Shown: positions 3,666 to 59,459, counted from the first letter of the stretch. The stretch is DNA of 64,000 nucleotides from Chiloscyllium plagiosum (GCF_004010195.1 NC_057719.1:33582767-33646766), one strand, 5' to 3'. Numbers and translations are program-made. The notes: generated from the sequence alone by a model not told the origin.

Positions 3666-3719
3666 GAGTTCCTCAAGATGCTGTCTTAGGCCCAACCATT
3701 ATCAGCTACTTCGATAATC

Positions 3720-3820
3720 TCTATTCCTGATGAAGGGCTTTTGCCTGAAATGTTGATTTTCATGCTCCTCTGATGCTGCCTGACCTGCTGTGCTTTTCCA
3801 GCACCACTCTAATCTGGACC
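3720..3820 (+). mobile_element. PLE-derived short insert with hammerhead-like core and 14-bp TSD
   Basis: CTGATGA-AGGGC-TTTT-GCCT-GAAA-TGTT at 3727-3754; flanked by ctacttcgataatc (3706-3719) and ctacttcaatagtc (3821-3834). Confidence 0.8.
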
Positions 3821-3907
3821 CTACTTCAATAGTCATCTTTCCTTCATCACAAGGTCAGAAATGGGAATGATTGCAGAATGTTAGTAGCATTCACGACTCT
3901 TCAGGCA

Positions 3908-4126
3908 TGTGTGGAATGAGCTGGCAGAGGATATGTTGGAGGCTGGTACAATTACAGCATTTAAAAGGCATCTGGATGGGTATATGAATAGGAAGAGTTA
4001 AGAGAGATATGGGCCAATTGCTGGCAAATGGGACTAGATTAATTTAGGATATCTGGTTGGCATGGACAAATTGGACCAAAGTGTCTATTTCAATGCTGCA
4101 CATCTCTTATAACTCTATAACTGTAT
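3908..4126 (+). mobile_element. CR1 (HER1-like) LINE 3' end, 5'-truncated, nested in older LINE
   Basis: gtgtggaatgagctg...tttaaaaggcatctggatgggtatatgaatagg...ttggaccaaagtgtctatttc, ending in (actctata)-type tail repeats. Confidence 0.85.
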
Positions 4127-4793
4127 GTCCAAGTGCAGCAAGACCTGGACAACATCCAGGCAAGTGGCATGCATTGATTGCCAGAAAATATCTATCTCCA
4201 ATGTCAATCTCCCCTTGACATTCAATGGCATTACGATCACAGAATCCCCAACTATCAATTTCCAGGTGATCAACATTAAGCGGAAACTGGACTAACTATA
4301 TAAATACAATGGCTATAATAGCAGTGAATAACTCAATTCCTGACTCCCCAAAGCCTGACCATCACATACAAGACACAAGTCAGGAGTGTGATGGAATATT
4401 TCCAACTTGTCTGGATGAGTACAACTCGAACACCCAAAAGATTTGATACCATCCAGGAGAAAGCAGTCGATTGATTGTCACTGCCTCCACAAACTTTCAC
4501 TCTCTTCACCACCACATTTGTAGTAGCAGTGTGCATTGTTTCTTCTCGATTCTTGTGTGCTTAAGAGCTGTAAATTAGAATGAGAAAGGACTATTTTTAA
4601 AAGCAGGGATTTACCAGAATTACTTTACGACAAGGAATTTGGTACCTATTGTAAACTCTGTTTTGGGGCTATCGATTCCTGGAATGTACAGATGATCAGA
4701 AAGCAAGAAGTTGTTTACAAATGAAGCTGATTGACTCTCAGCTAACTGAGCAGATTGGAACTAGAAGCAAGTTATCGAGACGCAGAGAGAGAC

Positions 4794-5188
4794 AAACCTA
4801 TACCTTTAATTCTGGACTCCCCCACCCCAGGGAAATGACCTTGACTATTTATCCTATTCATACCCCTCATGATTTTATGAACCTCTATAAGGTCACCCCT
4901 CAGCCTCTGATGCAACAGGAGAAAATGCCCCACCCAATTCCGTCTCTCCCTATAGCTCAAATCCTCCAAAATCTTTGCAAATCTTAATGAACCCTTTCAT
5001 GTTTCACAACAAACGTCCGATAGGAAGGAGACCAGAATTGCACACAATATTCTAAAAGTGGCCTAACCAATGTTCTGCACAGCCACATGACCTCTGAACT
5101 CCTATACTCAGTGCTCTGACCAATAAAGGAAAGCATACCAAACGCCTTCTTCACTACCCTCTCTACCTGCAACTCTACTTTCACGGAA
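4794..5188 (-). mobile_element. CR1 (HER1-like) ORF2 C-terminal fragment
   Basis: Translations RTLVRPLLEYCVQFWSPSYR and RLRGDLIEVHKIMRGM are typical of the CR1 ORF2 C-terminus. Confidence 0.9.
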
Positions 5189-6551
5189 TTTTGGAAAAAG
5201 ATCAAAACAACTTTTAGTTCTATGAGAAAAGTTGTTAGAATTTCATAAGCTAACCTATAAATGTGCCTTAGTTTAGATTTTCAAATAAATAAAAGAATAA
5301 TGAATTGAAAACTTACTTCTCCCCATCAGATTTTCTGTTGCACTGACCTTTCATTTTATAACCTTCAGTTTTCTTCCATATCTTCCTACAAGTGTGGATT
5401 CATGGATAACAGGAGTTTTCTAATGCCTGAGCTGCTCTCTGAGTGATTCTTTGGATATGACCTCAAACACTTGGAAACTGCAAACTAAGTTTGATTTCCT
5501 CTGTATTCTGGAAGTCACACATAGGACTCGAGTTGATCTTCCTCCGCAGCCAATGGACACAGGAGGTTAACTGCACTGGTATCTTTCCATGGTTTGTGAT
5601 TGATTTTGTTGGCACAGACAAGGGATTGATTGTCCTGTTTAGCATGATTCAGTTCCATAATTAGAAAGTACCTCCCAACTGAGCTTATTGGTGAACAGAG
5701 AATTGCTAATATATTATCACAATTATTCCATTTACAAGAAACTTGAAGAATGTTTATTGAAAAATGGCAAAGTTAAATGATTCATTGCCAACTGCATGGA
5801 ACCTATCTTCTTACAGTTGTTATGACTTTGTTACATAACGTGAGTGAAACCTTTCATGTCAGTCATCTTAGTGAAGTAATAGGAATTTCAGCTTGTGTAT
5901 TTGAAGCTGTCCTTTCAGTTGCCCTGACTGCCAGTATTCCAGAGAGATTCAGTTCCTCTTAAAATACAATACCCAGGTCAGATTTCACATTTCATTTAAC
6001 TGAACAATGTTGGCTGTTTTTATACCTATTATCTGCTCTTCGAATGCAAGCTTTTATCATCCTTAAACATTTCCAAATTCTTAAGAAGTAGATATACTAA
6101 AATCAATGGCAGCTGTGCACTGAGGTTCCTGCAACAAATGGATTATGCTTGCATGAGAATGTTATCTTTCTTATCAAAACACCTCATGTTCATTTGGACC
6201 AAAGTGGGCCAATTAAGTTTCAATTTCAACCAGTGCAACAGCATATCTAAAATATTGACGATAATAACGTCAGCAATGTTACTGACGAAAATCATCAATA
6301 ATAACTTGCAGAACTTACCAAGAAATCACTATCCAAAATGCAGCTTCCTTGTAATTAGTTGGATATAGAGCACATTACAATGTCCAGAAGTCATGAAAGC
6401 TGCTACCTAAATTCAAAATGTTTCCTTCACCTAGTGACATATACAACATGCATTGAAACATTCTCTGATTTTGTGACATTAGTCATTCCTGTCATAGTCT
6501 GAGAATCCTACTAGCGGTGGGGAGACTTGGGTTGACAAATATTGGGTTGAC

Positions 6552-6672
6552 AAAGTGAGAACTGCAGATGCTGGAGATCAAAGTCGGGAGTGTGGTGCTG
6601 GAAAAGCACAGCAGGTCAGACAGCATCCGAGGAGCAGGAGAATTGACGTTTTGGGCAATAGCCCTTCATCAG
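6552..6672 (-). mobile_element. PLE-derived short insert with hammerhead-like core
   Basis: Reverse strand CTGATGA-A-GGGC-TATT-GCCC-AAAA-CGTC (G12 lost, consistent with CpG decay); aaatattg at 6537-6544 and 6673-6680. Confidence 0.8.
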
Positions 6673-7155
6673 AAATATTGCTGGATAGCAACTTGAACTA
6701 GAGAGAGTAAAACAATAATGTTCATGACCTGAATCAATAACTTTGTGCCTTTCAAACAGGAACTTTTCAGTCTTGTCAAAAGTGAACTAAACAAATATTT
6801 AGTGGAATGAGGTATGATACAAGTTATTAATTAGGTTGCTTTACCACATACCAAGTCAAAACACAAAGCAACCTTAAAAATGTGACTCAATCACTAGTAG
6901 GTAGAATCCATTCCGAAGCAGATGGCATTGTTGGGTGACACCCACACATACGCACTTCCAGCTGATGATGGAACCTTAATCCATTTTTCCTACCTTGTCC
7001 CAGTCAGAACTAGTGAAACGCATTCCAGGGTTTAAGCCCTTCCTTGTATATGTGGCTCAGTTAGTGACTAAATAACCACAAAAGTAAGTGATCAAGAAAA
7101 CTCATGAAAGTAACACAACTTCACTTCACTTGATTTCCATTGATAGCTCCTGTTA

Positions 7156-9430: not shown

Positions 9431-10373
9431 TATAGACACAGGAAAAATGCATCCTTTTCAGGTTGACAAACTATAATTAGTGGAGTGCCACACACATTAG
9501 CATTGGCGTCACAACTATATCCAATCCATGTTAATGACTTGGACGAAGTGCATTATGGCCAAATTTGCTAATGCTACAAAAAATATCAGAAGGCAAGTTG
9601 TGAAATGGGCAGAAAATTTTCACAAAAGGATATAGATAGGTTAAGTGATAAAGGTTTATAGAATCATGAGGCACATAGATAGGGTAAATAGACAAGGTTT
9701 TTTTCCTGGGGTGGAGAACTCCAGAACTAGAGGGCATAGGTGATAACCTCACAGATGATAGGGCATTAAGCTTATTTCAGTTCGTGTTCGTTGCAAGAGA
9801 TGATCAAAGATAGTTTAACATTCTGTTTGCCATTCATCATTGCTGTTACATTGCTGTTGACAAGGGACATTTATTCATTAGATCTTTGCAATGTGGATTG
9901 CCAAGTTAAGCTGATTCATTTTGCTCTGTAGGGGCTTATGTTTGACTAAAATAATGACACTGCAGCCAGCTTTCTTAAAAAAAAGACAGAACTATGAAGC
10001 TAGTGAAAATCTAATAGCAAATGGGCAAAGAGGAAAATTTGGGAAATGAAGAACATTGTGAGAAAATTTGAGGTTGTACACTTTGGCAAGCACAAAATAA
10101 CTAAATGGAGAGAGACTGCAGCATTCTGCAGTACAGAAGGAATGGCTTTTCTCATACACAAATAGCAAAAATAAAGCACACAGGTAGTCAGTCAGAGGCA
10201 AATGCAATGTTTAATTTTATTGTAAAACGTTGTAATCTAGCAGGAAGGAAATATTTGCATTTGAGGCAGTTCAGAGAAGATTGATTAGGTAGATTCCAGT
10301 AATTAAGGAAAGATTATGAGAAAAGGTTGACCAGGTGAAGCCTATACTCTTTGGTGTTTAGCAAAATGACAGA

Positions 10374-11517
10374 TAGAGTCATAAAGATGTCCAGCATGGA
10401 AACAAACCCTTCAGTCCAAGTTGTTTATGCTGACTAGATATCCTAATCTAATCTAGTCCCATTTGCCAGCACTTGGCCCTCTAAATCCTTCCTATTCATG
10501 TACCCATCCAGATGTATTTTAAATGTTGTAATTGTGCCAGCCTCCACCACATCCTCTGGCAGCTCATTCCATACACGTTCCACCCTCTGCGTGAAAATAT
10601 TTCCCCTTAGGTCCCTTTTAAATTTTTCCCTCTTACCCTAATCCTATGCCCTCTAGATTAGATTACTTACAGTGTGGATACAGGCCCTTTGGCCCAACAA
10701 GTCCACACCGACCTTCCAAAGAGCAACCCACCAAGACCCATTCCCCTACATTTACCCCTTCACCTAACACTACGGGCAATTTAGCATGGCCAATTCACCT
10801 AACCTGCACATCTTTGGACCGTCGGAGGAAACTGGAGCACCTGGAAGAAACCCACGCAGTCACGGGGAGAATGTGCAAACTCCACACAGACAGTTGCCCA
10901 AGGTGGGAATTGAACCCAGGTCTCTGGTGCAGTGAGGCAGCAGTGCTAGCCACCGTGCCACTCTGGAGCTGGAGTTCCCCACCCCAGGAAAAAGACCTTG
11001 TCTATTTACCCTATCCATGTCCCTCATAATTTTATAAACCTCTATAAGGTCACCCCTCATCCTCCAACGGTCCAGGGAAAACAGCCCCAGCCTGTTCAGT
11101 CTCTCCCTGTTGCTCAAATCCTCCAATCCTGGCAACATTCTTGTAAATCTTTTCTGAACCCTTTCAAGTTTCACAACATCTTTCCTACAGGAGGGAGACC
11201 AGGACTCCACACAATATTCCAATAGTGGCTTAACAAATGTCCTGTACAGCCGCAACATGATCTCCCAACCTTTCTACTCAATGTTCTGACCAATAAAGGA
11301 AAGCATACCGAATGCCTTCTTCATTGTCCTATCTACCCGTGACTCCATTTTCAAAGAATTATGAACCTGCACTCCAAGGTCTCTTTGTTCAGCAATACTC
11401 CCCAGGACCTTACTATTAAGTGTATAAGTCCTGCTTTGATTGGCCTTTCCAAAATGCAGAACCTCACATTTATCTAAATTAAACTTCATCTGCCACTCCT
11501 CAGCCCACTGGCTCATT
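10374..11517 (-). mobile_element. CR1 (HER1-like) LINE 3' portion, interrupted by an HE1 SINE
   Basis: ORF2 C-terminus QWAEEWQMKFNLDKCEVLHFG...LYRTFVKPLLEYC...RGDLIEVYKIMR, plus 3' UTR and tail at 10374. Confidence 0.92.
10655..10961 (-). mobile_element. HE1-type tRNA-derived V-SINE, full length, nested in CR1
   Basis: Head gtggcacggtggctagcactgctgcctcac...gggttcaattccc, V-domain tgtgtggagtttgcacattctcccc, (ATCTA)n tail; possible TSD ctctag/ctctgg. Confidence 0.92.
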
Positions 11518-11616
11518 GAAGTATAGAAGATGGGTAGATGCTTAGTGAACATTTCTGTGTGGCAGTCTAGAACTTGTGGACACATTTTCATAATAATATT
11601 GTTTCCTTTGTAAGAG

Positions 11617-12526: not shown

Positions 12527-13026
12527 NNNNNNNNNNNNNNNNNNNNNNNNNNNNNNNNNNNNNNNNNNNNNNNNNNNNNNNNNNNNNNNNNNNNNNNNNN
12601 NNNNNNNNNNNNNNNNNNNNNNNNNNNNNNNNNNNNNNNNNNNNNNNNNNNNNNNNNNNNNNNNNNNNNNNNNNNNNNNNNNNNNNNNNNNNNNNNNNNN
12701 NNNNNNNNNNNNNNNNNNNNNNNNNNNNNNNNNNNNNNNNNNNNNNNNNNNNNNNNNNNNNNNNNNNNNNNNNNNNNNNNNNNNNNNNNNNNNNNNNNNN
12801 NNNNNNNNNNNNNNNNNNNNNNNNNNNNNNNNNNNNNNNNNNNNNNNNNNNNNNNNNNNNNNNNNNNNNNNNNNNNNNNNNNNNNNNNNNNNNNNNNNNN
12901 NNNNNNNNNNNNNNNNNNNNNNNNNNNNNNNNNNNNNNNNNNNNNNNNNNNNNNNNNNNNNNNNNNNNNNNNNNNNNNNNNNNNNNNNNNNNNNNNNNNN
13001 NNNNNNNNNNNNNNNNNNNNNNNNNN
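12527..13026. other. Assembly gap (500 N)
   Basis: Run of exactly 500 N. Confidence 1.
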
Positions 13027-15027: not shown

Positions 15028-15085
15028 GCCTTTGAGGAATCTGTTGAAATTCAACTCACTCTTCTCAATGCAAGGACAATAAAAG
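15028..15085 (+). CDS. Possible 58-bp internal exon (AFEESVEIQLTLLNARTIK), unassigned
   Basis: Branch-like ctaat, acceptor tttgcag|G, donor AAG|gtaatt, one open frame; no partner exon found. Confidence 0.2.
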
Positions 15086-16030: not shown

Positions 16031-18080
16031 GGAGTGTAGCTACAACATTGGCATCTAGCCAAAAACATAGAACGTCGCTCAGGTATGTCTTGTTTATAAA
16101 AAGCAGGAAAAGTCCAATGCAGCAAATTCCTGAATTCATCATCCTAGCCTCAATGATCAGCAAAGTGAATGAAGGTGTTATCAACATTGTTATCAAGTGG
16201 CATGTACTCAACAATGACCTGCTCACTGACACTCAGTTTGGGTTCTGCCAGAGAGACTCAGCTCTTCATCTCATTATAACTTTGATCCAAAACTGGACAA
16301 AGAGCTGAACTCCAGAGGTGAGGAGGAAGTGACTAATCTGACATCAAGGCAGCGTTTGACCAATTGTAGCATCAAGAAGCCATGGCAAGCTTGAAGTCAA
16401 TGGGAATCAGGGGAAACGCTCCACTGGTTAGAGTCATACCTAACACAAATGGAGATGATTGTGTTTGTTGGAGCTCAATCATCTCAGCACAGGAACACAA
16501 TGGAAACATGAAGTCCTCCTGGTAGTGCTCTCAATCTAAATCATTTTCACCCACTTCATCAATGATAATCTTTGCATCATTAGGTCAGACGTGTGAATAC
16601 TTGCTAATGATTTCATAATTTTTGTGGTACTGCAGCAATTGGCTGACATACAGTAAGACTGGACAACGTTCAGTCTTGGGCTAAAAGGTGACAAGTAACA
16701 TTTGCACAGATCGGGTGCAAGGCAATGACCATTTTCAATAGGAGAGTACTTAACCATTATCCTCCGATGTTCAACAGCATAGTTATTGCAGAGTCACCCC
16801 CATCATCAACGTCCTGGAGATTACCAATAAAAGGTTAACTGGACCATAAAAATTTTGCTGCTTACTAGAGAAGGTCAAATACTGGAGATGTGGTGCCAAT
16901 TAACTTGCCTTCTAAATTGCCAAATCATCTCCATTATCTAGAGGGTGCAAATCAGGCTTGTGATGGAATGCTCTCACATAGTTGAATGAGTACTGCTCCA
17001 TGAATAGTCAAGAAGCTCAGATCACATAGGACAAAGGATCCCCATTGATTGACCATCCACCACTTTAAATAATCAACATTCACCTCTAGCAGACAGCAAC
17101 AAAAAATGCGTGTCCCATCTATAAGGTTCACTGCTGAAACTTTGTAACTCTAGCACCTAGAAGAACAAGGCCAACAGGTATTTGCACTGTGATCTGCAAG
17201 TGCCCTGCCAGGCAAAATATTTTCTGGACTTGACTTGGAACAATACTGCTGTTCCTTCACTGTCACTGTGTCAAAAACCTGGAACACCCGCAGCTCATTC
17301 CATACATACCACCTTCAGTGTGAAAACGTTGCCCCTTAGGTCTCTTTTGTATCTTTCCCCTCTCACCCTAAACTTATGCCCTCTCGTTCTGGACTCCCCC
17401 ACCCCAGATAAAAGACTTTGTCTATTTATCCTATCCATGCCCCTCATGATTTTATAAATCTCTATAAGGTCACCCCTCAGCCTCCAACGCTGCAGGGAAA
17501 CCAGCCCCAGCCTATTCAACCTCTCCCTAAAGCTCAAATCCTCCAACCCTGGCAACATCCTTGGAAATCTTTTATGAACCCTCTCAAGTTTCACAACATC
17601 TTTCCGATAGGAAGGAGACCAGAATTGCATGCAATATTCCAACAGTGGCCTAACTAATGTCCTGTACAGCCGCAACATGACCTCCCAACTCCTGTACTCA
17701 ATACTCTGACCAACAAAGGAAGGCATACCAAACATCTTCTTCACTATCCTATCTATCTCTGACTCCACTTTCAAGGAGCTATGAACCTGCACTCCAAGGT
17801 CTCTTTGTTCAGTAACACTCCCTAGGACCTTACCATTAAGTGCATAAGTCCTGCTAAGATTTGCTTTCCCAAAATGCAGCACCTCTCATTTATCTAAATT
17901 AAACTCCACCTGTCACTTCTCAGCCCATTGGCCCAACTGATCACAATCCTGTTGTAATCTGAAGTAACCTTCTTCACTGTCCACTACACCTCTAATTTTG
18001 GTGTCAGTAGCAAACTTACTAACTATACCTGTTATGCTACAGCATTTCAAGAGGACAGCCCATTACCACATTCTCAAGTG
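16030..18080 (+). mobile_element. Family B LINE RT and 3' region, interrupted by CR1 at 17291-18038
   Basis: MISKVNEGVINIVIKWHVLNNDLLTDTQFGFCQ...LIITLIQNWTK; the tail resumes after 18040. Confidence 0.8.
17291..18038 (-). mobile_element. CR1 (HER1-like) ORF2 fragment, well preserved
   Basis: 195-aa ORF LHFGKAN...RDLGVQVHSSLK...LYRTLVRPLLEYC...LRGDLIEIYKIMRG...RTRGH. Confidence 0.93.
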
Positions 18081-28254: not shown

Positions 28255-28558
28255 ACAAGTTTTGAGAAGATTTATTGCTCACGTTGAAGTTCTGGATGTA
28301 GTTTTACTCGCTGATCTGGAAAGTTCATTTTCAGATGTTTCATCACCATACTTGGTAACATCTTCAGTGAGCCTCCGGATGAAGCACTGTTGGTGTTTCC
28401 TGCTTTCTATTTATATGTTTGGGTTTCCTTGGGTTGGTGATGTCATTTCTTGTGGTGATGCCATTTCCTATGGTGATGTCATTTCCTGTTCTTTTTCTCA
28501 GGGAGTGGTAAATGGGGTCCAAGTCAATGTGTTTGTTGATAAAGTTCCGGTTGGAACG
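28255..28558 (-). mobile_element. Penelope-like element 3' end / pLTR (second PLE family)
   Basis: Minus-strand SNRNFINKHIDLDPIYHSLRKRTG (PLE ORF end), then three 18-bp tandem repeats (28436-28489) and a hammerhead motif. Confidence 0.75.
28331..28370 (-). ncRNA. Type I hammerhead ribozyme motif (minimal stem III)
   Basis: uca-CUGAAGA-U-GUUACC-aaguau-GGUGAU-GAAA-C-AUC-uga; stems I and II pair; the ACGU stem III palindrome has changed to ACAU. Confidence 0.6.
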
Positions 28559-28811
28559 TCACTAGTCACTAATTTGATGACAAAGTGGTTAACCTCTACT
28601 CTAAAGCTTTGTTTACGCAGATCATTTGCAACGGTAAAAGCTATGATGGAAAGATAAACAATGTGTCCTTTGGCATTGAGAAACCAAAAGTCAATAACTT
28701 TTAAAAGAAGATTGATTATGATATGATCCAGGCACATGTCATCTAAATGTCCCAGCATCCCAGTAATGATTCTGATTCTTGGTTCAGAAATGGCATCCTA
28801 ACTGTACTTGG

Positions 28812-29037
28812 TGAAACCAAAAGAGAAAATGCTGGAAAATCTCAGCAGGTCTGGCAGCATCTGTAAGGAGAGAAAAGAGCTGACGTTCGAGTCTAACTGA
28901 CCCTTTGTCAAAGCTGTTTGAAGTTAGACTCATAACGTCAGCTCTTTTCTCTCCTTACAGATGCTGCCAGACCTGCTGAGATATTCCAGCATTTTCTCTT
29001 TTGGTTTCAGATTCCAACATCCGCAGTAATTTGCTTT
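28812..29037. mobile_element. PLE-derived fold-back insert with perfect 14-bp TSD
   Basis: Inverted arms ~28812-28898 and ~28922-29009; tgtacttggtgaaa at 28803-28816 and 29038-29051; decayed hammerhead core. Confidence 0.88.
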
Positions 29038-29929
29038 TGTACTTGGTGAAAAGTGTGAAAAACGTGTAAAATCTTCAGAATGGCATAGTTCTATTTATCA
29101 CAGTCAAAAACTTTGGAGTTCTCCAAAGTATTTGTCCAGACTGTGATTGATCATTTGACCTTGTTTGACATAATAACAGTACTGTATAGATTAAAACTGG
29201 AGCAATACCCTAACAGTAGCTATCCCTAAACCAGGAAAGCAAGATTTGTGTGAATTCTAAAGTGTTCATGTAGAATATCAATACCAATTGTCAAACTTGA
29301 CAACATAAGATCGATATAAAAGAGAAAGCACCATCATTAAGAAAATAAAACTCTCGTTACAACTTCCAATTCTTAAATAGTTTGCCGCATTCCACTATTC
29401 AAAATCTTATGCCAAGTGTTGTTCATAATCTGTATATGAAGAACTTCCTGGAACCACACTTTTCTTTTGCCTGTGAACTCACTTTTCTGAAGTGTCACAA
29501 TCAGAAATCCATTCATCATTTATTGAAATCCAAATACAGAATGAACGTGAACTTACTAAACTAGGTTTGTCATTGTATGCATTGACCTACAGTAAATCTA
29601 TGAATTTCTCAACACCTTCAGTACTATGCCACATTTATTGCTGCCCCTAGCAGCTATCAGAATTTGACACCTTGAAGTAGCTGGTTAAATTGTTATATCA
29701 ACCATTCATTTTGGGAAGAAGGCAAGGTGATAAACAGGTTGTTCTCCATTGTTCCCCAAAACTATTGTAGTGCTTTTCCAAAATGTTATAATATACTTTT
29801 ACACAATGATGTATAAGGCTCTGTCACATAACAATCAGTAATGCATAGCTCTGTTAATAGAATAAAGTGTTCCATAGTGCATCACAACAGTTAATCAGAT
29901 AGAAATAGACTCCAATTCAGAGGATGAAA

Positions 29930-38026: not shown

Positions 38027-38526
38027 NNNNNNNNNNNNNNNNNNNNNNNNNNNNNNNNNNNNNNNNNNNNNNNNNNNNNNNNNNNNNNNNNNNNNNNNNN
38101 NNNNNNNNNNNNNNNNNNNNNNNNNNNNNNNNNNNNNNNNNNNNNNNNNNNNNNNNNNNNNNNNNNNNNNNNNNNNNNNNNNNNNNNNNNNNNNNNNNNN
38201 NNNNNNNNNNNNNNNNNNNNNNNNNNNNNNNNNNNNNNNNNNNNNNNNNNNNNNNNNNNNNNNNNNNNNNNNNNNNNNNNNNNNNNNNNNNNNNNNNNNN
38301 NNNNNNNNNNNNNNNNNNNNNNNNNNNNNNNNNNNNNNNNNNNNNNNNNNNNNNNNNNNNNNNNNNNNNNNNNNNNNNNNNNNNNNNNNNNNNNNNNNNN
38401 NNNNNNNNNNNNNNNNNNNNNNNNNNNNNNNNNNNNNNNNNNNNNNNNNNNNNNNNNNNNNNNNNNNNNNNNNNNNNNNNNNNNNNNNNNNNNNNNNNNN
38501 NNNNNNNNNNNNNNNNNNNNNNNNNN
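38027..38526. other. Assembly gap (500 N)
   Basis: Run of exactly 500 N. Confidence 1.
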
Positions 38527-38614
38527 AACCTGCACTCCAAGGTCTCTGTTCAGCAACACTCCCTGGTATACTTCTGATTCCTTTATGTGACATCAGTGTG
38601 CACATATATGGGCC

Positions 38615-38841
38615 GGGCAGAAGTGGGGACTGCAGATGCTGGAGATTACAGTCAAGACTCGAGTGGTGTTGGAGAAGCACAGCAGGTCAGGCAGCATTTG
38701 AGGAGCAGGAAAATCGACTTTTCTGGCAAAAGCCCTTCATCAGGAAGAGCTGATGAAGGGCTTTTGCCTGAAACGTCGATTTTCCTGCTCCTCAGATGCT
38801 GCCTGACCTGCTGTGCTTTTCCAGCATCACTCTCGTCTTGA
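38615..38841. mobile_element. PLE-derived palindromic insert with two divergent hammerhead cores
   Basis: Arms 38652-38743 and 38750-38841, 6-nt spacer; TSD acatatatgggcc (38602-38614) and atatctatgggcc (38841-38853). Confidence 0.88.
38750..38787 (+). ncRNA. Minimal hammerhead ribozyme core
   Basis: CUGAUGA-A-GGGC-UUUU-GCCU-GAAA-C-GUC intact, with the ACGU palindrome; stem I is imperfect. Confidence 0.6.
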
Positions 38842-38937
38842 TATCTATGGGCCAAATTAGCACTTACTTTTTAGTTTGCTATCGTACAAAAAATGTGCTG
38901 GCTGTTAATGAATTATTTTCACCAACCATTTTGAGTA

Positions 38938-39202: not shown

Positions 39203-42169
39203 TGCAATAACTCTTATAAATTGAATTACATTCAGCTGGACATAGCACCCTGAATACAACATATTTATTTTGTACAGAAACAGAACACAATTACTATGAA
39301 ATTGTCCACCAATTCTGCCTGACCTACTAAGGGTCACCTGACATTTTCTGTCTTTGGTTAAGATCTCCAGCATCCATACTGATTGGATGAAGATTTCTGG
39401 TCTCTCTTGTGGTTGAAGATGCAGATGGTAATTAATTAGATAGGATGGCAGTGTGCCTGAACTCTGCTGCATTCCTGCCTCCACCTGAATTAAGTCATGG
39501 TAACAAGCCTGTGAACAGCCTTCCCACCCCTACCAACTGAGGCTGTTAAATGGCCATTAATAAGCACTTACGTCCTCACCCCACAGTGGCTGGAATTAAC
39601 CTGGTTGAGCCTGTTGGCTATGGTGTGCACAACTGGAAAGGCAGTGTGGTCTGCTTGTAATCGGAGAAATGAGACATCATAAAGGGGTGTGGGAAAGGCC
39701 ACAAAGAGTCACTTCCCTGCCTTTGCTGCTGACCTTCCTAAATTCTTCTAACTGCCTACCTCACAAAATCACTTCCACCATTACTGACCCGTAGCATGAA
39801 CTGCTCCTCAATCCTGGGCCTGCAATGGATGCTGTTCTGGCATCAGCCATGGCCACTGCAGTAGCACTGCCATTCAACACAGCTGCCATTTTCTAAGTGA
39901 TACTTAATACAGAGAGGCCTTCCTGGAGGAACCACAACAGTCATTCACCATCTGTCTAGTTAGCAACTGAGTTCCCAAAGCCTCCACAAACAAGCCCAGA
40001 ATTTCTACCTTGAAGGTTTTTGTTCACAGGCCTCTCCTAATGACATTGACACTTGATATTCCATGCTCTTGTGAACATCAAAAATACTCTGATATTTAAA
40101 CTATGTAGCTATTCCACATGGAATGGCAGGCATCAGCTTTGAGCCAAGTCCTGTTCTGAATTCATACATGTCCATTTTTGTTACTAGTAAACATTGTATA
40201 AAGTGACCAAGAGTATCAAAACTGACTGAACCCTCTCCCTTCCCTGGAACAGGGAGGTTAAAATCTCATCACCTGATCCCACATCAGTCTAAAGCCGAAT
40301 TTAACCCAGCATCTTCTGGACTGAATAGCTAACATTCCTCTGTCCTTAAGCAGTAAGTCACTGGATAACTTGCAAAATTTCTATGTAATCACCTTTTTCA
40401 GATTCAAACACCAAGATTTTGATACAAATTCCTGGTCAACACAAATTCAGCCAATGGGTTTAAACTACCTTCATCATTTGTTAGATCTAAAGGTCCAGAG
40501 TAAAACAGATAATAGTACACTGTAATTACACAGCAGACCCGGTCAGAATCTATAAACAAGAAAAAGAAATTGTGATACTTTGGGTGTCTAACCCTTGATT
40601 AAACTAAATTCGTCAGAATCTTTCATTTTAATTTTCAATCTTCTGAGAAATGGACAGATACATATCCAACGCATCATATAAAGTTTGATTTTGTTTTCCT
40701 TATTGACTTGCTGTGCAGCTTCAGCCTAATTTGTTTACATTTCAGGATCACAGACTTTACCTTTTTGTTGTTTACATCAATGAGTTTAGGTAGTTTCAGT
40801 CTTATGGTTTATTCAAATATAATAGAAATATGCAAAGAGTGCTACAGAAACTATTATTCTAGTGTAGCAACAGAGTTAATTAATTGTTACTTTGCCTCAA
40901 ACTGCACTGAAGCTGACCTGGACTAGATATTGATGGGCTGTGTCCTGTTTTCCAATATTTACAAACTTAATCTTGCCAAGTAAACAAAAACAAACTCTCA
41001 TGCATATGCTCAAATTCATTCAATGTTTTCCACTTCAAGTAAATTTGGCTGAATGTGGATAACAAATGGGTGTACTAACTAGATGTATGAGCAATTTAAT
41101 ACAAAAAATCAACCTTGGGGCCCAATTACATGTGGATCTGTGGGAAATAAAAGGTTGATTGGTCCATTCTCACATTAAACAGAGACTAAAACAGAAACAT
41201 TACACAAGATTCTGCATTGGGGTGGGAGAATGGTGTTTAGGGTAGTTGAGGTGGAACAGAAAGTAAATTGGGTGGATTTGTAAAAAAACGTGCTTGTGAT
41301 AGGGTTAGGGTTAGGGATAGGGTTGCCTATCTGTAACAAACTCTTTTCTACTGGCATCAAAGACAACTTTTGCTCCCTCAACTCTTGAGAGAGACTTTGA
41401 GATAGTCCTGAGGCAAACAAATTGATTTGAGATATTTAATGATTAATCTTGTCTATCTATTACTTTTGGATTTTCTTTTATCTGACTTTTCATTTCAAAG
41501 TTCAACAAAGTTCCAAAATATAATTTGAATTTTTTTTACCAACATCTAGCACATTTACATAGTGCAAATCAATCATAGGACAATTTCAGTTGTTTGTCTT
41601 CTTTATTTGCATTTAATATGCTTATAGAAAATACAGCCACTGCTTTTACAACCATTTGCTTTGCTCTTGAACATATTACTTCAAAGGGAATGTTTACTTC
41701 ATACTCGTGTGGTTAAAACATATTTCACTACAATAGCTTTGGCTATGAGGTGCAGGAGTCAAAATAACTATTTGATTCTGAACGATTGATATGACATAAC
41801 GTTTGATTGGTATGAGATCATTTGTGATGGACTAATTTTCAATAAGACAGAAGAAAGTGAATATTATGAGGGATATGAAGTTGAGGGGACAGAAGAATTC
41901 CCACACTAACATCATAATCCACAAAATAAAACCATTTGTTTATATCCATGTTCTTCAGTATCTAACAAGAGAATTATGTCACATAAATGTAACTTTTAAC
42001 ATTACAAAAGGCTCTGATTGTGGCCCAAAGCGTAACAAGATTAAACAATATCTTAGATAGACAAGAAAACAAGCAGTTAAAGCTCATGTGCCAAAAGTAG
42101 ACATAAATGACAAGGTAGCATTAACATTTTTTGAGATGGATGCATACTGAATCTATCAGCTTCTAACTC

Positions 42170-43354: not shown

Positions 43355-43857
43355 CATAGAATCATAGTCAGAGAGATGTACATCATGGAAACAAACCCTT
43401 TGGTCCAATTCGTCCAAGCTGACCAGACATCCTAAATTAATCTAGTCTCATTTGCCAGCAGTTGGCCTGTATCGCTTTAAACCCTTCCTATTCATGTACC
43501 CATCCAGATGCCTTTTGCATGTTGTTATTGTACCAGCCTCCACCACTTCCTCTGGCAGTTCATTCCATACACTTAGCACCCTCTGTGTGAAAAAGTTGTC
43601 CCTTATGTCCCTTTTAAATCATTCCCCTCTCACCTTAAACCTACAACCTCTAGTTTTGGACTCCCCTACACTGTGTAAAGGACCTTGCCTATTCACCCGA
43701 CCCATGCCCCTCATGATCTTATAAACCTTTATAAGGTCAGCCCTCAACTATCGACACTCCAGGGAAAATAGTCCTAGCCTATTCAGCCTCCCACTATGGC
43801 TTAAACCCTCCAACCATGGCAACATTCTTGTAATTCTTTTCTGAACACTTTCAAGTT
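43355..43857 (-). mobile_element. CR1 (HER1-like) 3' end
   Basis: catagaatcatagtc tail; 3' UTR and ORF2 end collinear with 10374-11170. Confidence 0.9.
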
Positions 43858-45689: not shown

Positions 45690-46600
45690 TAGCATTCTAC
45701 AGCTTTGAAAAAGACCTTCTGCCCATCATGTCAGCACTAGTCATCAAGCACCTATTTATTCTAGTCCTATATTCCACTTGGCCTGTAGCCTTATATGCCA
45801 TAGCATTTCAAGTGTACATCTGAATACTTCTTAAATGGTCTGATGGTTCCTGCCTCTGCCAACCTTTCAGAAAATGAGTTCCAGATTCCCACCACCCTGT
45901 GAGAGGGGGAAAAGTTCTTCCATAAATCACCTCTTAAGCTGCTTCGCCTTACTTTAACTTGAATCATAGGGTTATAGAGTCAAAGGTTCAGAAACAGACC
46001 CTTTGGTCCAACCAGTCCATGCCAACCATAATCCCAAACGAACCTAGTCCTACCTGCTTGCATTTGGCCCATATCCCTCCAAACATTTCCGATTTATGTA
46101 CTAAGCTAAATGTCTTTTAAATGTTGTAACGGTACCCGCATCCATTACTTCCTCAGGAGGTTTATTCCAAACACGAACCACTCTCCGTGTAAAAAAATTG
46201 CCACTCACGTCTTTTTAAAATCTTTCTCCTCTCATCTTAAATGTATGACCCCTAGTCTTGAAATCCCCCTTCCTAGGGAAAAGACACCTGCCATTCCCCT
46301 CATCTGTACCCATCATTATTTTATAAACCACTATAAGGTCACTTCTCAACCTCCTAAATTTCAGTGAAAAAGGTTCCAGCATATCCAGCATCTCCTTGCA
46401 ACTCAAACATAAAATCTATGCCCTCTGGTTATTGATCCCTCAACTAAGGAAAAAACGTTCCTTCTTGTCCAAACTATCAATGTACTTCATAATTTTCTGC
46501 ACTTTCTCAGGTCCCTGAGCCTTCAACCTAAGAAAATCCTGGTGAATCAACTCTACACCCTCTCAAGTATAATGAAATCATTCTTACAGTGAAAGAATAA
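45690..46600 (-). mobile_element. Old CR1 3' end with a second CR1 subfamily nested at ~45961-46408
   Basis: Host sequence breaks at ccttactttaa and resumes aaatctatgccctctgg; insert encodes RRLRSDLIVVYKIMMG...KTRGH. Confidence 0.75.
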
Positions 46601-48412: not shown

Positions 48413-48818
48413 GGTCCATTCTGACTGTAACGATTTCATAGCTGACTAATCAATTTGTTCATAGCTATACAGTATATGATGTATCCTCACTAAGTCAGTT
48501 CTCTGTTTTCTGGCACAGTTTATGCTTCAATGTAGTTTCCAGTCAAGCAACATAGACTCCAGCCTGGAGTGTGTGGTATTTCCAGAGGGCAGAGTACTAC
48601 AGGTGCCAAGTGAGCAACTACCAACTGAGTGGTCATTTAAAAGCTAAAAAGTAATTCTGATTCTTTTCTTACAATTTGTTTTGTGAAAACTACATTTAAA
48701 CTTAAATCTATCAGTTCTTAATTCACATCAGCACTTTTATTTGTGACTAGTTGTTTTCAAGATCTATTATGGGGAGGCAATGGCCGAGGGTGTTATCACT
48801 AGGCTATTGATCCAGAAA

Positions 48819-49008
48819 GGAAAAAGTGAGGACTGCAGACGCTGGAGATCAGAGCTGAAAAATGTGTTGCTGGAAAAGTGCAGCAGGTCAGGCAGCATCC
48901 AAGGAGCAGGAGAATCGACGTTTCCGGCATAAGCCCTTCTTCAGGAATTTCTCGTGCTCCTTGGATGTTGCCTGACCTGCTGCGCTTTTCCAGCAACACA
49001 TTTTTCAG
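48819..49008. mobile_element. PLE-derived fold-back insert with hammerhead core and 14-bp TSD, nested in a SINE
   Basis: Minus-strand CTGAAGA-A-GGGC-TTAT-GCCG-GAAA-C-GTC (48917-48944); tattgatccagaaa (48805-48818) and tattaatccagaaa (49009-49022). Confidence 0.88.
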
Positions 49009-49974
49009 TATTAATCCAGAAACTCAGCTAATGGCTGAAGGTGGAATTTGAATTCATTAAAGACTCTGGAATTAAGAGTCTCATTAATGATGACCATGAA
49101 ACCATTGTTTTTGATTAACAACCTTCCAGGAAGGAACTCTGTCATCTTTACCTGGTCTGGCCTACATGTGAATCCAGCCTCACAGTAAGGTAGTGGATGC
49201 TTAATTGTCCTCTGGGCAATTAGCGACAGGAAATAAATCTTACCTTAAACTTGAAATGCTGTGTTAGATTTGAAATTCAGGAGTAAAATGCCTTAGCAAT
49301 TGACACCAGTGTGATGAGAGCGCTGTATCCTATCAGAATGACAGAGTAGACATGATGGGTTGAATGGCCTTACTCTGCTCCTAACTCTTATGAACTTATC
49401 CGTTCATAACACTGCCCAATTATTTTCCCCAAAAATGTGTGGACCTAGTTTAATTCATTCCATTCTAAATAAAAGAGCATGGTGTCAGGGTAACTGTCAT
49501 TTTGGACATTCAAAATGTTTCACCTGAACTTATCAGTGTGTAGTTTATGGATTTACAAAAATACAAACTTTTTTTTCAAAAAAAGTAATAGATCTTTTAC
49601 AAATATAGGCATATATATGTGTAATATAATATATATATTTACACACACAAGCACACACACACTCACCTATGTATCACCACATGTAGATTGTTATAGTTAA
49701 AAAGGGATGAGCTGTGTTATCGTAGTGGGCCGGATTTTCCGAGAGATGGAAATCTTATGCAGATTGTTACTCCAGCTCCTCCATGTTATGAAGGAAGAGA
49801 GCTCTGCATTTCTGAATGGAGATTCTATTCAGGGCTCCCTCGCAGTGTAGAATTGCCATCATCTTTTCTCAACAGTCAACTCTGTAAGCTGAAATTTAAA
49901 TATCCATACAGCTATTCTGACAGCTGCTGTCAAACTGTAAGTAACTAAATTTTGTGTGATGTAAAGATGCTGGG

Positions 49975-50967: not shown

Positions 50968-51099
50968 CAAACTGAAGAACTGTGGAAGCTGGAAGTCAGA
51001 TTCAAAAACAGAAATTGCTGGAAAAACTCAGCAGGTCTGGCAGCATCTGTGGAGAGAAAGCAGAATTAAGGTTTTGGATCCAGTCACCCTTCTTCAGAA
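50968..51099 (-). mobile_element. PLE-derived short repeat with decayed hammerhead core
   Basis: Minus-strand CTGAAGA-A-GGGT-gactgg-ATCC-AAAA-CCTT followed by acagatgctgccagacctgctgag. Confidence 0.75.
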
Positions 51100-52147
51100 T
51101 GAAGGAATGAAGATTTGTATCCAAATTTCTTATTCAAATTTCCAAAAACCCTGTACACGTGAAAAAGAAAGCAAGAGAACAAGACAGTTGCCTCAAAGGT
51201 CTAAAGCCTTGCTTTGAGGAAATGAAGTTTTCTACCCTACGCCTTCTAACCTCTATTTACATTTTTACATTGCAATATGAAGCATTGGACCATAATAAAA
51301 GTATGATGAATTAACAAGGTATCTGTTCAATTCTCTTTCCTTCTCTCTTAAAAGGAGTGTGTTCTGGAACATGTTGTTATAGCCATCTACCTTGACCAGT
51401 CCACCAATAGCAGACTATGTGACCATGTCAGGCGTTAAAGTCAAGCTTTAACACGAGAAGCTTTCAGCCTGAAGATACCGAGCAACAGTCATGAGTGGAA
51501 TACAAATTGATTTTTTTCATCCCTCTTTCCTTTGGGATGCCGAAGCTAACAGGAGTACAGTATGAAGACTATTTGCTGCTATGTAGCTGCGGGGCAGCTG
51601 AATCCATTAATGCCATCATCTTATCTTCCTGGCAGTGAATGCCAATGGAAGGCCCTGTAACTGCAGCTGGACCTATAAATATCACGTGCCTTAGGTCCAC
51701 AAGGCAATACTGCCACCCCTGTGTGAAAGAATTATTTTCAAGCATCACAATTTACATTCAGCAGCATGAGAATAATTACAGGGCTGGGCATAGATAATAG
51801 AGCAATGTACAGAGTGAATCATAGGTTTCTAACCGCCATTGCAACAGAGTTGTCACGTCATTCCCTGCCATCTGACATTTCTTGTCACTTGGACTACCTT
51901 CATTATAAAACATGCAGGTTTTTTTTAATGCAATCAGTAGATATTAACTATCCACTCTCTACAAAAGATATATCAAGAAATTCAAATGAAACAACTGCTA
52001 AATTTAAAATTTCCAGAGCAATCAGCAATTTTTCAGGGACTAAAAGGTTTATGTAGGACATAAAAGATAAAAGCATCTTGGTCATGTGCAACACTGTGAT
52101 CAGCGTCAGAGCTATCAACCCTCATTCATTTGAGTTTGACAATGTAC

Positions 52148-55034: not shown

Positions 55035-55197
55035 GATTAGATTAGATTAGATTACAGTGTGGAAACAGGCCCTTCGGCCCAACAAGTCCACACCGACCCG
55101 CCGAAGCGAAACCCACCCATACCCCTACATTTACCCCTTACCTAACACTACAGGCAATTTAGTATGGCCAATTCACCTGACCCTGCACATCTTTGGA
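55035..55197 (-). mobile_element. HE1-type SINE, 5'-truncated, young
   Basis: (ATCTA)n tail, CpGs retained, very similar to 62016-62164. Confidence 0.9.
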
Positions 55198-55483
55198 TGA
55201 CATTGAGGTTAGTATTAAACATTGGGTTTACAAGCAGCAATCACACCTCATGGAAAACTAAAAGGTAGCAACATTGTATTATGTTGATTTATTGTTCGAT
55301 AGCAATTATCTGGAAGCATACAAAAACTGATTATAGCAGCTAACAGTTACTGGTAGTAGTCCAGTTGGTGCACAACTAAGATTGGATGTGAAACCTCCCC
55401 TAGCCTGTGACTGTTAATAAATATTAGGTTAAGAACAGAAAATGGTGGAAATACTCAGCAGGTTTGGTAATTCCTGCAGTTCA

Positions 55484-55663
55484 GAGAAGGTGGTGAGGCT
55501 GGTGGAATTGTAACATTTAAAAGACATCTGGATGGGTATAGGAATGGGAAGAGTTGAGAGGGATATGAGCCATATGCTGGCAAGTGCAACAAGATCAGTT
55601 TAGGATACCTGGTCAGTGCAGATGATTTGGACCAAGGATCTGTTTCCATACTCTATGACTCTA
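55484..55663 (+). mobile_element. CR1 (HER1-like) 3' end
   Basis: Collinear with 3920-4120; tail ctctatgactcta. Confidence 0.85.
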
Positions 55664-55676
55664 CGCGATGGATTTT

Positions 55677-55973
55677 TAGATTGGATTAGATTGGATTATC
55701 TGCAGTGCGGAAATTTGCCCTTCGGCCCAACAAGTCCACATCGACCCTCTGAAGAGTAACCCACCCAGACCCATTTCCCTCTGACTAACGCACCTAACCT
55801 GTGGACAATTTAGCATGGCCAATTCGTGCTCCTCTGGAGCACCCAGAGGAAACCCACGCAGACACGGGGAGAATGTGCAAACTCCACACAGACAGTCGCC
55901 CGAGGTTGGAATCGAGCCTGGGGCCCTGGCGCTGTGAGGCAGCAGTGCTAATCACTGAGCCACCATGCTGCCC
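55677..55973 (-). mobile_element. HE1-type SINE
   Basis: Head gggcagcatggtggctcagtgattagcactgctgcc, V-domain, (ATCYA)n tail. Confidence 0.92.
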
Positions 55974-57086
55974 TAAATAGCAATCTGAGGCTACATGGCC
56001 ACCATTACTGATACTACCTTTTTATTTTGCATTTATTTAATTAACTGAATTTAAGTTCTCTTACTGCTATAGTGACACTTGAACTCACATCTCTGAATCT
56101 TAAGTCCAGATTTCTGGACTACAGATTCTATAACATAATTGTTGTTACTATTCAGATCATTTACATAAATTATTCATTATGTATTTACATAAATTGTTTA
56201 TTTAGTTTTGCAATCCACTGCTTATCACCATCCAAATCTACAAGTTAACAATGCAGCAGGCTTTGAAATTAGTTTGTTTAGCTGGGAAACAAAAAAGGGT
56301 TTCATTTTAAGTAAATTATTTTGCATATTTTACCCTGGTTACCCCATGATTAAAAGAATGGATTTTAATACTGAAATGTCATTGATTATCAAGCTTATTA
56401 TTTCAGTGAGACTGCTATATCTCAGCCCAAACACACTGTAAAGCTAATTTCATTTGAATTTTTTTTTGTAGCTCAATGTGTAGCAACAAGCTATGCATAA
56501 TAAGCGATGCATGTATTTATGTAACATTTCACTATCACTATGGCTCATTGACTTGTGCAAAAGTTGGTTATCCCCTTTTATTAAAAGCACTGCGATAAGG
56601 GCTTACTTTTGGAAGAAAAAGGATGAGATTATTACCATACTCTCAGCAAACACAAAAGGTACAATGCATCGTTCTCAATCTGGTCAGTGTGATAATGTGT
56701 ATGAGTAATCTCTGATGACTTTCCCCGTAAAGTAATGGCAAATGTTCATTCCAGAAGAATTGGTAAGGTCAGGTTTGAAATCAATATATCCATCAATCAA
56801 CATCTTCCAAATGAGGCATTTGGGAGATCTTACTGGCCATCCTCTGCTATGGTCTGTTCATTGAACTGAGGTAGGGCAAATTATAAAATGGAACTGAAGC
56901 TTTAATGGTCTATTATAAAAATATCTAGCTTGAATTCTCACTTGAGCAACTGCAATACGCTTCAGTTGTAAAAATGAAATGTTCCATTATTTCAGACTGT
57001 AAAAGATAAGTGACCAAGAAAAGCCCGACCAACTCATCATGCTGAATTCTCCCATATGCAGTTAGTGTGGTGAGCCACTTTGATAT

Positions 57087-57411
57087 TAGAATCCCTACAA
57101 TGTAGGGACAGGCCATTTGGCCCCACAAGTCCACACCAACCCTCCAAAGAATAACCCACCCAGACCCATTCCCCTGCCCTATTACTCTGCATTTACCCCT
57201 GACAATGCACCTAAATTACATGTCCCTGAATACTATGGGCAATTTAACATGGCCAATTGACCTGACTTGCACATCTTTGGATTGTGGGAGGAAACTGGAG
57301 CACCTGGAGGAAACCCACACAGACACTGGGAGAATGTGCAAACTCCACACAGATGTCACCCAAGCCTGGAATCAAACCCAGGTCCCTGGCACAGTGAGGT
57401 AGCAATGCTAA
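57087..57411 (-). mobile_element. HE1-type SINE
   Basis: V-domain and tail as in the other copies. Confidence 0.9.
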
Positions 57412-57542
57412 TGCGTAAGTCACCGTTTTCAGTCTACTGTGTGAATTTACTCACATAATCGCAACATAATTTTCACCTCGTTCATTATCATATCAAGCTC
57501 TTTGGCGCAATTCTCATGAAATCACATGGTGAGAGAGGCGGA

Positions 57543-57584
57543 ACCCAACTCTGGCATACCCAACTCTGGCATACCTAACTCTGG
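57543..57584 (+). repeat. 15-bp tandem repeat, 2.8 copies
   Basis: acccaactctggcat acccaactctggcat acctaactctgg. Confidence 0.9.
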
Positions 57585-57619
57585 TGCCATATTTAAACAG
57601 CAGCATTCAACCATGAAAT

Positions 57620-57830
57620 GTCACGGAAGAAAGGTATGCTTCCAGGACAGGGATCTTGAGTTGCTGGAATGGGTGATGGAGGGGATTGATATCCCTGCTC
57701 CTGCAAAGGAGGCCAAGCCACCAAACAGCAAGGGCAGAGATTGCAGTACAAGTCAGTGTTGTGTTCAATATCAAAACTGTCATACAGCAAAGCCACAAGA
57801 AGGTCAAAGATCTTCTGCACTCTGCAAGAG
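57620..57830 (+). pseudogene. Frameshifted Myb/SANT-like domain of a PIF/Harbinger transposon
   Basis: RKVCFQDRDLELLEWV in one frame, RRPSHQTARAEIAVQVS...QQSHKKVKDLLHSAR in another; fits the NAIF1/MSANTD-type trihelix pattern. Confidence 0.6.
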
Positions 57831-58812
57831 GAAGTGCCATCATTTTCTTTCTGATAACTCACACTCACACTCTCACTCTGTCACTGCACAGAAATCTCAC
57901 CAAGGCTTATGGACGGAGACCCACAATATCCCATGCACCTCATCCATTCTCGCGCTCACATCTACATCATTCTCCAAAGCTACTAGCCTTTCCTGCCCTC
58001 TACAATTCCTACTCACTTACTGAGCACACCTGACTACCACTTCTGCTCTGACATGACCAATAACTGCTCTTGCATCCACTTCCATGATATTCTATCTCTT
58101 GCCTTGCTTAAAGTAGGAAAAACTGGCTCCCTGTCTTGATGTCTCCACAGCACACAGACTGGGTGGACCTGGAAGATGAGGTTTCCTCTTACGAAAGAAC
58201 CGAGAACTAGGTGTCATTTTAAATGAAGAGATTGCCCATTTATATCAGAGATAAGAGAAATTGAGTGTCTTTGGAACATTCTTTCTCAAGTAGCACTGAA
58301 AGCAGAATCTTTTTAAGTATTTTTAAGACAGAAGTGTTTATATTTATGGTAAGGAGGACAAGGTGAGGTGTATATTGATTATCAGGATTAGGCAAGAAGA
58401 TAGAGTAATTAAATCAACGACGATCATATTGAACAGGATTGACGGACTGAGTGGCCTATTCTTCCTACTAATTTGTGTTTTCATGTCATGATTTGGACAA
58501 TATTTGAATATTGTTGTTAACTGTACACTTGATGACCACAAATGGAAATAATAATGGTGTTTACCAATATCTTGTGGGTTGTCATTAACTAGAAGCACAA
58601 GTGGGCTCTCCACACAAATGTCATGCATATTACTGCTGCATGACCTTGTGAGCAGCTCAACTAAACATCTCTATACAAGGTTATTTGTTAAGTGGCCAAC
58701 TGTAAATATCTATTCTCTCCATAATTGCTGCATGTACCTACAGTGCACTCTAGCTGCAAGATACACTTAGTCAATTTGTCACAGCTTCTTTAATATCAAC
58801 TTCCAAACCTGT

Positions 58813-58909
58813 TCTGAGGAAGGGTCCCTCTACCTGAAACATTAACTCTGATTTCTCTCCACAGATGCTGCCAGACCTGCTGAACTTTTCCAGCAATTTC
58901 TGATTTTGA
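58813..58909 (+). mobile_element. PLE-derived short insert with hammerhead core and perfect 12-bp TSD
   Basis: gtt-CTGAGGA-A-GGGT-ccctct-ACCT-GAAA-C-ATT-aac; ttccaaacctgt at 58801-58812 and 58910-58921; sits in a family B LINE tail. Confidence 0.85.
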
Positions 58910-59459
58910 TTCCAAACCTGTGACCTCAGTAACTAGAAGGACAGGGGTGGGAGAGGTGTGGGAACATCATCACCTTCAGAATGACCATCATCATTCTGAC
59001 AAAGGCACCAGATCCTGCCATTCTGCTCCAAGGCTTCTACCCAGCTCAGCATGCTGGAGGAATGGCCAGCAGTGCAGGATGAAGATCAATAACCTTTTTC
59101 ACTCCAAATAAATAATTTACCCCACCCAGTCTAGGTACGGGCACAATAATTTCATGTCCTTTCCATATTTCCAGCGTGATGGAAGCCAACAATGATTACA
59201 CCTTGAACACTGAGTCTAAAGCTCAGCCGCTCCATTTTGGTGAACCCCCAAACATAAGCATTCCCTTCCTGGTTGACCAAATAATAACCATAGCAAAGAC
59301 AAAGAACTATTAGTCAATTCAGATTTTGGAATTCTAGCTCATTCAATTCAAAGGCAATCATAAGCCACAATTATCCACACCATTCCATCCTTCATTTTCT
59401 TCAGTTGAAAACCATTGACTTCAGAATCTGCAAATCAAATGACTGAGAAATCCACAGAA

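Follow-up and report, generated by a model that had tools for sequence, protein, structure and literature searches.

Penelope-like elements (PLEs) with hammerhead ribozymes are the closest described relatives of the short inserts treated here, which lie in a 64,000-nt stretch of the shark Chiloscyllium plagiosum (GCF_004010195.1 NC_057719.1:33582767-33646766; the whole stretch is called the window). Comparisons with published systems, here and below, refer to parts of the cited papers. The PLE hammerheads of Cervera and de la Pena (2014; PMC4209133) share with those of the shark an extra base between positions 9 and 10.1, a G10.1-C11.1 closure, the lack of helix III, and a U3/A8 variant. That paper ascribes dispersed single motifs to truncated PLEs and records opposite-strand pairs 100-700 bp apart, both of which have counterparts here. 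The helix II layout of a coral Neptune motif in its Fig. S3 is nearly the same as that of three shark loci (A, D, and E, listed below), and the shark families look Neptune-like. No shark is found in its text or Fig. S3, and the parts used do not discuss target-site duplications (TSDs), a 5' edge at helix I, or a rule of one tail per inverted pair.

Canonical endonuclease-containing (EN+) PLE insertions (PMC3846280, PMC8557442, PMC8969392) have in common with the shark inserts a head-to-head inversion, a tail at one end, a TSD, and solo pseudo-long terminal repeats (pLTRs). The tail is known to measure 30-40 bp (PMC8557442, PMC3846280). The shark inserts differ in being made up of one or two pLTR-sized arms without a reading frame and in being very abundant. 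Their TSDs are 12-14 bp long, whereas those of a rotifer PLE are 8-10 bp (PMC3846280).

The anole Poseidon element PAc (Frangieh et al. 2024, PMC11167929) is comparable in its reaction. Its enzyme, a predicted dimer, cuts and extends both strands and initiates at two internal start sites that bracket and define the tail, with run-off at the RNA 5' end. Ribozyme cleavage is not needed for insertion, and shortening of the RNA at the 5' end yields shorter products. RNA up to +172 was needed, beyond the first start site (+111-118) plus a 30-40-nt tail. PAc differs in belonging to the Poseidon clade and in priming independently of homology, and the parts of the paper used describe neither the stagger nor short products in vivo.

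Non-LTR retrozymes (PMC7761336; bioRxiv 10.64898/2026.07.22.740005) are also non-coding, carry type I hammerheads, are kin to pLTRs, and occur as dispersed monomers. They differ in that their 150-300-bp units are arrayed head to tail and give rise to circular RNA, whereas the shark inserts are single or head-to-head stubs whose ends would correspond to PLE start sites. Solo PLE hammerheads, inverted ends, and tails are already in print; the 5' edge and the narrow duplication length were not found there. The literature covered, namely that outside subscription journals, Repbase/Dfam, and closed preprint supplements, did not describe the shark families, a 5' edge fixed at helix I, PLE twin priming, or a narrow 12-14-bp PLE TSD, and PLE TSDs are described as variable (PMC8557442).

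The shark inserts are real, PLE-derived, and not retrozymes; they are old, fixed, and probably inert. There is a better than even case that they are the hammerhead-to-tail ends (solo pLTRs) of several PLE families, likely dead by-products, primed from one or both strands of the cut target. Read in hammerhead sense, the arms are parts of one 95-135-nt design composed of helix I, core, helix II, cleavage site, a nested stem-loop, and an optional tail. Six inserts carry clear flanking repeats.

3706-3834, + strand: locus A, 101-bp insert with a 14-bp TSD (3706-3719/3821-3834); tail-less arm 3720-3820, core from 3727; host, the reverse-transcriptase region of a long interspersed nuclear element (LINE)
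28803-29051, both strands: locus B, 221-bp insert with a perfect 14-bp TSD; head-to-head palindrome
28817-28916, - strand: left arm of locus B, tail-less, U3/A8-type core at 28911
28917-29037, + strand: right arm of locus B, 33-nt tail, 9-nt gap in the core
30591-30707, - strand: locus C, 89-bp insert with a perfect 14-bp TSD; single tailed arm 30605-30693; host, a LINE 3' region
38602-38853, both strands: locus D, 226-bp insert with a 13-bp TSD; palindrome
38615-38749, - strand: left arm of locus D, 38-nt tail, core at 38743
38750-38840, + strand: right arm of locus D, tail-less, intact core at 38750
48805-49022, both strands: locus E, 190-bp insert with a 14-bp TSD; palindrome; host, a repeat resembling short interspersed nuclear elements (SINEs)
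48819-48948, - strand: left arm of locus E, 36-nt tail, core at 48944
48949-49008, + strand: right arm of locus E, tail-less, beginning 2 nt past the cleavage site
58801-58921, + strand: locus F, 97-bp insert with a perfect 12-bp TSD; single tail-less arm 58813-58909, core at 58814; host, a LINE

All six repeat pairs agree in coordinates, length, and mismatch count with a preliminary description of this DNA made from the sequence alone. Random boundary pairs have a repeat of at least 12 bp with up to 2 mismatches in 9 of 3000 cases with 3-nt slack and in 80 of 3000 with 10-nt slack, so six of six is not chance; an exact repeat is seen in 3 of 3000 (10-nt slack). After excision of the insert and one repeat, the rejoined junctions at 3706, 30591, 48805, and 58801 align to uninterrupted host copies within the window, in line with the four restored LINEs or SINEs reported earlier. 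No repeat host is present at 28803 and 38602. At the four rejoined sites, TSD-flanked inserts entered pre-existing repeats. As the flank at 30591 is similar to the end of the element, the length of the repeat there may be taken as anything from 14 to 20 bp. No common target motif is evident across the six insertion sites.

The 12-14-bp range comes from these six chosen loci. Seven others were tested, with the arm at 39303 left out, and one passed the strict test (6549, an 8-bp exact core that overlaps the element). Relaxed matches at 1351, 50979, 60127, and 60775 were rejected, given a chance rate of 23%. The near-fixed TSD length claimed at the outset holds for the chosen loci and did not extend to the others. 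The edge and the narrow TSD could be a product of selecting six good cases from plain random 5' truncation. PLE insertions are heavily 5'-truncated and variable in TSD length (PMC8557442), and 7 of the 18 arms recognized in the window begin inside the unit. The truncation test and the loose ends in three DNA runs, both given below, speak against this explanation, which is very improbable.

A profile made from 13 arms finds 14 loci with 18 arms in the window and none in the reversed window. The related copies previously placed at 1351, 6552, 50968, and 60775 are all real, and four further loci are added. Density is about one locus per 4.5 kb, somewhat above the earlier estimate of one copy per 6 kb. 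The arms fall into several subfamilies that are 53-91% alike. None overlaps the five tandem arrays of the window, and no frame of at least 110 aa lies inside any insert (89-226 bp).

The hammerhead core has the extra base between 9 and 10.1, the G10.1-C11.1 closure, and a palindromic GAAAC-GUH, and it lacks helix III, while helices I and II measure just 3-5 bp. A strict descriptor fits at 3727, 38750, and 58814 and in an unrelated copy at 28367, with no match in 100 shuffles. Decayed or variant cores are present in six further arms. Five of the six inserts have the motif, as first described; it is lacking at 30591, where the arm begins about 8 nt past the cleavage site. The predicted cleavage site of locus F is 58843/58844. 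The core at 28911 on the - strand has U3/A8 in place of C3/G8, a covariant form that has been reported (PMC4209133). This would fit selection for catalysis in the parent family better than decay. The covariance-model check proposed earlier gave no support: no hammerhead family is among the 14 Rfam matches at E <= 5, as is expected for motifs without helix III. Energy folding of the arms does not predict the active hammerhead fold. Sub-threshold Rfam matches of microRNA-type hairpins on the palindromes were rejected.

The strict match at 28367 belongs to a piece of a second, unrelated PLE-like family at 28256-28500 on the - strand, with an 18-bp tandem repeat (28435-28489) upstream. This piece is one that we take to be Poseidon-like.

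The 3' ends of the arms fall into two classes 33-38 nt apart (33 nt in B, 38 nt in D, 36 nt in E). This spacing matches the 30-40-bp PLE tail. The nested stem-loop 3' of the hammerhead is paired in 94% of 104 cells and shows no compensatory change, a pattern of conservation and not of covariation. It is a candidate element for protein binding and for the start site. Half of the arms are without the tail that completes this conserved stem.

In all subfamilies, the nested stem-loop consists of an inner stem of 5 bp and an outer stem of 7 bp; the tail supplies the 3' strand of the outer stem, and tail-less arms end between the two stems.

Head-to-head palindromes with outward 3' ends occur at four loci (28803, 38602, 48805, and 60775), that is, in three of the six inserts and one further locus. 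They were absent from the preliminary description. The fourth is given here.

60779-60978, both strands: locus G, old palindrome; left arm tail-less, right arm tailed

In each of the four palindromes, one arm has a tail and the other has none, and both belong to the same subfamily. The arms are identical at 80 of 82 aligned bases in B, 57 of 60 in E, 83 of 91 in D, and 56 of 78 in G, and these values (98, 95, 91, and 72%) point to several old insertion waves. A possible decayed 14-bp TSD at locus G (10/14) is not significant. The palindrome centres of B, D, E, and G differ. A reading of the palindromes as DNA transposons (miniature inverted-repeat transposable elements) was rejected, given the unequal arms, the equal frequency of single arms, and the long TSDs.

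The palindromes are probably explained by a staggered cut. The enzyme of the element would cut both DNA strands about 12-14 bases apart and prime from one or both cut ends. A stagger of the kind that produces a TSD leaves two 3' overhangs directed into the gap. Each overhang would prime its own complementary DNA (cDNA), a twin priming for which a dimeric protein would be responsible, and the cDNA ends would be joined in the middle of the insert. Priming from both overhangs would lead to head-to-head arms with outward 3' ends, as seen. The two 3'-end classes would correspond to the pair of sites at which reverse transcription has been mapped to begin in the anole PLE. Initiation at the 5'-proximal start-site stem-loop, followed by run-off at an RNA end lying at helix I, would give the 95-135-nt product. 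Such products would lack the upstream promoter and the downstream protein-binding sequence, so most could not move again, and the hammerhead would be a passenger. The earlier proposals of a PLE origin and of insertion at a stagger of about 14 nt are both backed: the origin by the 33-38-nt tail, the inverted ends, and the hammerhead, and the insertion as target-primed reverse transcription at cuts staggered by some 12-14 nt.

Alternatively, the second arm could arise by fold-back: a single cDNA would pair with itself at the helix I complement, or at some other short match, and prime its own extension, with the 5' edge being a place of stalling or processing and not the transcript start. In print, head-to-head junctions of PLEs have been ascribed to self-priming (PMC3846280). 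Opposite-strand joints are also present in other contigs of the DNA runs, and two of these, the 58812/58847 joint and the junction of run X11, join arms through a 4-nt helix I complement. In some subfamilies, an AG dinucleotide follows pyrimidines at or near the edge, as at the intron end of D. virilis (PMC4209133). Fold-back leaves unexplained the tail-less end that palindromes share with single inserts, as well as the common 5' edge of single arms. Helices of 3-5 bp would be a weak block, and no upstream exon is shared ahead of the arms. Fold-back is unlikely.

In the 58812/58847 joint (runs X1 and X18) and the X11 junction, an arm that starts at the cleavage site meets an arm that starts at helix I; locus E is within 2 nt of that form. 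Such joints would be expected from cleavage, from fold-back, and from microhomology deletion.

The 5' edge is the second feature that bears on the staggered-cut reading. Of 11 arms that reach the catalytic core, 10 stop no more than 9 nt upstream of it, and 7 of the 18 arms stop short of it, within the 60 nt that copying passes before reaching it. Ten of the 18 arms begin within about 8 nt of the hammerhead core. Under constant-hazard truncation, the pattern has P 3e-11 for all arms and 7e-8 for the eight whose bounds are firm, being set by a TSD, by a partner arm, or by a continuation that can be seen. The test is rough: decay can mimic truncation, very short arms escape detection, and three arms are bounded by loss of similarity alone. 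The random 5' ends that were named at the outset as the mark of ordinary truncated copies are not what is seen, as the ends are non-random near the hammerhead core.

The same edge is seen in three shark DNA runs mapped at 80% likeness to 58650-61050, which is 2.4 kb of the window. Contigs placed numbered 90,419, 78,502, and 62,148, of which 1212, 1210, and 1065 leave the reference at 58811. Agreement beyond that point is 0.36-0.38, as for unrelated flanks. Behind 58912, by contrast, the tail stays legible for about 20 nt. These figures are from the best-supported rows, with 981 joints and 3478 loose ends beyond those.

A longer copy is also present in the window and ties the short inserts to a putative parent element.

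60127-60464, - strand: longer 5'-truncated copy, consisting of a 41-codon frame end (60464-60342), then an untranslated region (UTR) and the same tail as C, D, and E

The shared tail ties the short inserts to a frame end, putatively that of a protein-coding PLE. The UTR is pyrimidine-rich (75% C+T), and an internal deletion took out the hammerhead. The peptide of the frame end is identical at 24 of 33 positions to an 81-aa predicted protein of the whale shark (E 2.7e-5, among 1.84 billion proteins searched). The frame end is putatively the C-terminus of a GIY-YIG nuclease. Two other hits of this exhaustive search, P0001 and P0002, were rejected as artefacts from repetitive proteins. In word-indexed protein searches, neither the frame end nor an alternative frame nor the host LINE had a match, and a metagenome locus search gave 590 pattern matches, none of them confirmed. 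An atlas search with the 41-aa piece was uninformative (best 0.80). No reverse transcriptase is seen in the long copy, and the window holds no full frame. The frame end is covered by paralogous contigs, and in the three DNA runs the summed depth over the tail is 11.0, 7.6, and 10.5 times that over the frame end of the long copy, in favour of the staggered-cut reading. Long copies are thus numerous, though outnumbered by short ones.

Whether the edge marks the transcript start or a stall or processing site is close to an even call. The consensus of the loose ends has an initiator-like word at the edge. In the long copy, a TATA-like word is present at 60207. Both words speak for transcription starting at the edge. 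A TATA box plus an initiator is also found in a rotifer pLTR (PMC3846280).

Several observations weigh against the staggered-cut reading or weaken parts of it. In Penelope of D. virilis, the start site is not at helix I, which coincides instead with the end of an intron, 121 nt past the start (PMC2377424, PMC4209133). No extra G, as from a copied cap, is evident at the firm 5' junctions. The 1169 reads contributed by a single-cell poly(A) library lie on both strands and show no RNA start and no pile-up of ends; this library is poorly suited to the purpose. Low agreement upstream of 58811 could in part come from several parents with different UTRs, and the deletion in the only long copy hides the spacing from the TATA-like word to the core. 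The one-tail pattern of the four palindromes has by itself a chance of 1 in 16. For the GIY-YIG assignment, the atlas offers a weak lead (score 0.82, with the family on 15% of members), and Pfam finds nothing in the frame end. The depth sums over tail and frame end are not copy numbers and are biased by the 80% likeness filter. Finally, there is some microhomology at the tail-less priming ends (5 nt in B, 1 in D, 0 in E, and 3 in F; chance 0.0004-0.003), whereas the anole enzyme primes without homology. The count leaves out A and G, where continuation is uncertain, and gives modest backing to the microhomology-assisted priming suggested earlier.

The non-autonomous, retrozyme-like family originally proposed is a further alternative. 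Short hammerhead units would be transcribed and re-mobilised in trans by PLE protein, in the manner of retrozymes or SINEs. A fixed 5' edge and two fixed 3' ends resemble a discrete unit, short copies outnumber long ones by about 10:1 in summed depth, and tailed arms retain the hammerhead and the whole downstream stem-loop with its 94% of paired cells. One palindrome junction is shared at a depth of 94.7 against about 5 for single copy (about 17 times). In the rotifer, pLTRs sufficed to move other DNA in trans (PMC3846280), and a preprint derives animal retrozymes from pLTRs (bioRxiv 10.64898/2026.07.22.740005). Retrozymes are tandem units, however (PMC7761336, bioRxiv 10.64898/2026.07.22.740005), and no tandem, head-to-tail array is found in the 14 loci. 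The units span the cleavage site and lack terminal redundancy, the design repeats in subfamilies that are only 53-70% alike, palindrome centres vary, and tail-less arms are without half of the outer stem. By analogy, the anole enzyme's need for RNA to +172 would lie past the stub ends. The proposal is not borne out and is improbable; tailed copies could nonetheless be independently mobile. Of the poly(A) single-cell reads, 99% continue into other sequence; that library is unsuited to circles. Dispersed PLE ends should not be called retrozymes.

A stronger version of the staggered-cut reading is that the stubs are a fossil record, across the genome, of the PLE reaction. A dimer would cut at a nearly fixed stagger of 12-14 nt, its two active sites would initiate at either end of the tail, and both would run off at a transcript start lying at helix I. 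A minority of junctions, those in which an arm beginning at the cleavage site meets the other arm through the helix I complement, would record ribozyme cleavage in vivo. This is possible but doubtful. If true, one rule would explain the tail, the inverted pLTR, and the solo minimal hammerheads that animal genomes contain by the thousand. Counting these stubs could show how the inverted ends and the tails of PLEs are made and whether PLE hammerheads are cut in vivo. Tens of thousands of contigs' worth are available, each with a readable TSD, start site, and 5' edge.

The search for empty sites in relatives, another check proposed earlier, found none over the 2.4 kb mapped. The insert of locus F occupies the same site in two related species, and no empty allele was seen there. 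The remaining arms of the window are single and mostly decayed.

1345-1427, + strand: decayed arm of a shorter subfamily, core at 1352
6552-6677, - strand: single tailed arm, core at 6672, without a clean 12-14-bp TSD
32921-32979, - strand: decayed partial arm, profile E 7.7e-07
39303-39376, + strand: decayed partial tailed arm, profile E 2.4e-05
50976-51100, - strand: single tailed arm of the locus F subfamily, core at 51097, without a clear TSD
55429-55467, - strand: short decayed partial arm, profile E 0.0087

A local duplication with a period of about 15 bp (6520-6552) lies entirely to one side of the 6552 copy and does not flank it. After the end of the 1351 copy, a short inverted self-copy (1415-1445) forms a tail-to-tail hairpin.

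DNA pattern scans of viral contigs and of metagenomes gave no matches, and seven prokaryote loci from such a scan were taken as chance matches and left unused. No host gene is evident among the window frames of at least 110 aa. Decayed LINE and SINE copies are numerous (3179-5193, 10373-11515, 17232-17935, 43366-43857, 45975-46407, 55035-55968, and 57079-57412). The window also has two 500-N assembly gaps, at 12527-13026 and 38027-38526, the second of which ends 75 bp ahead of locus D.

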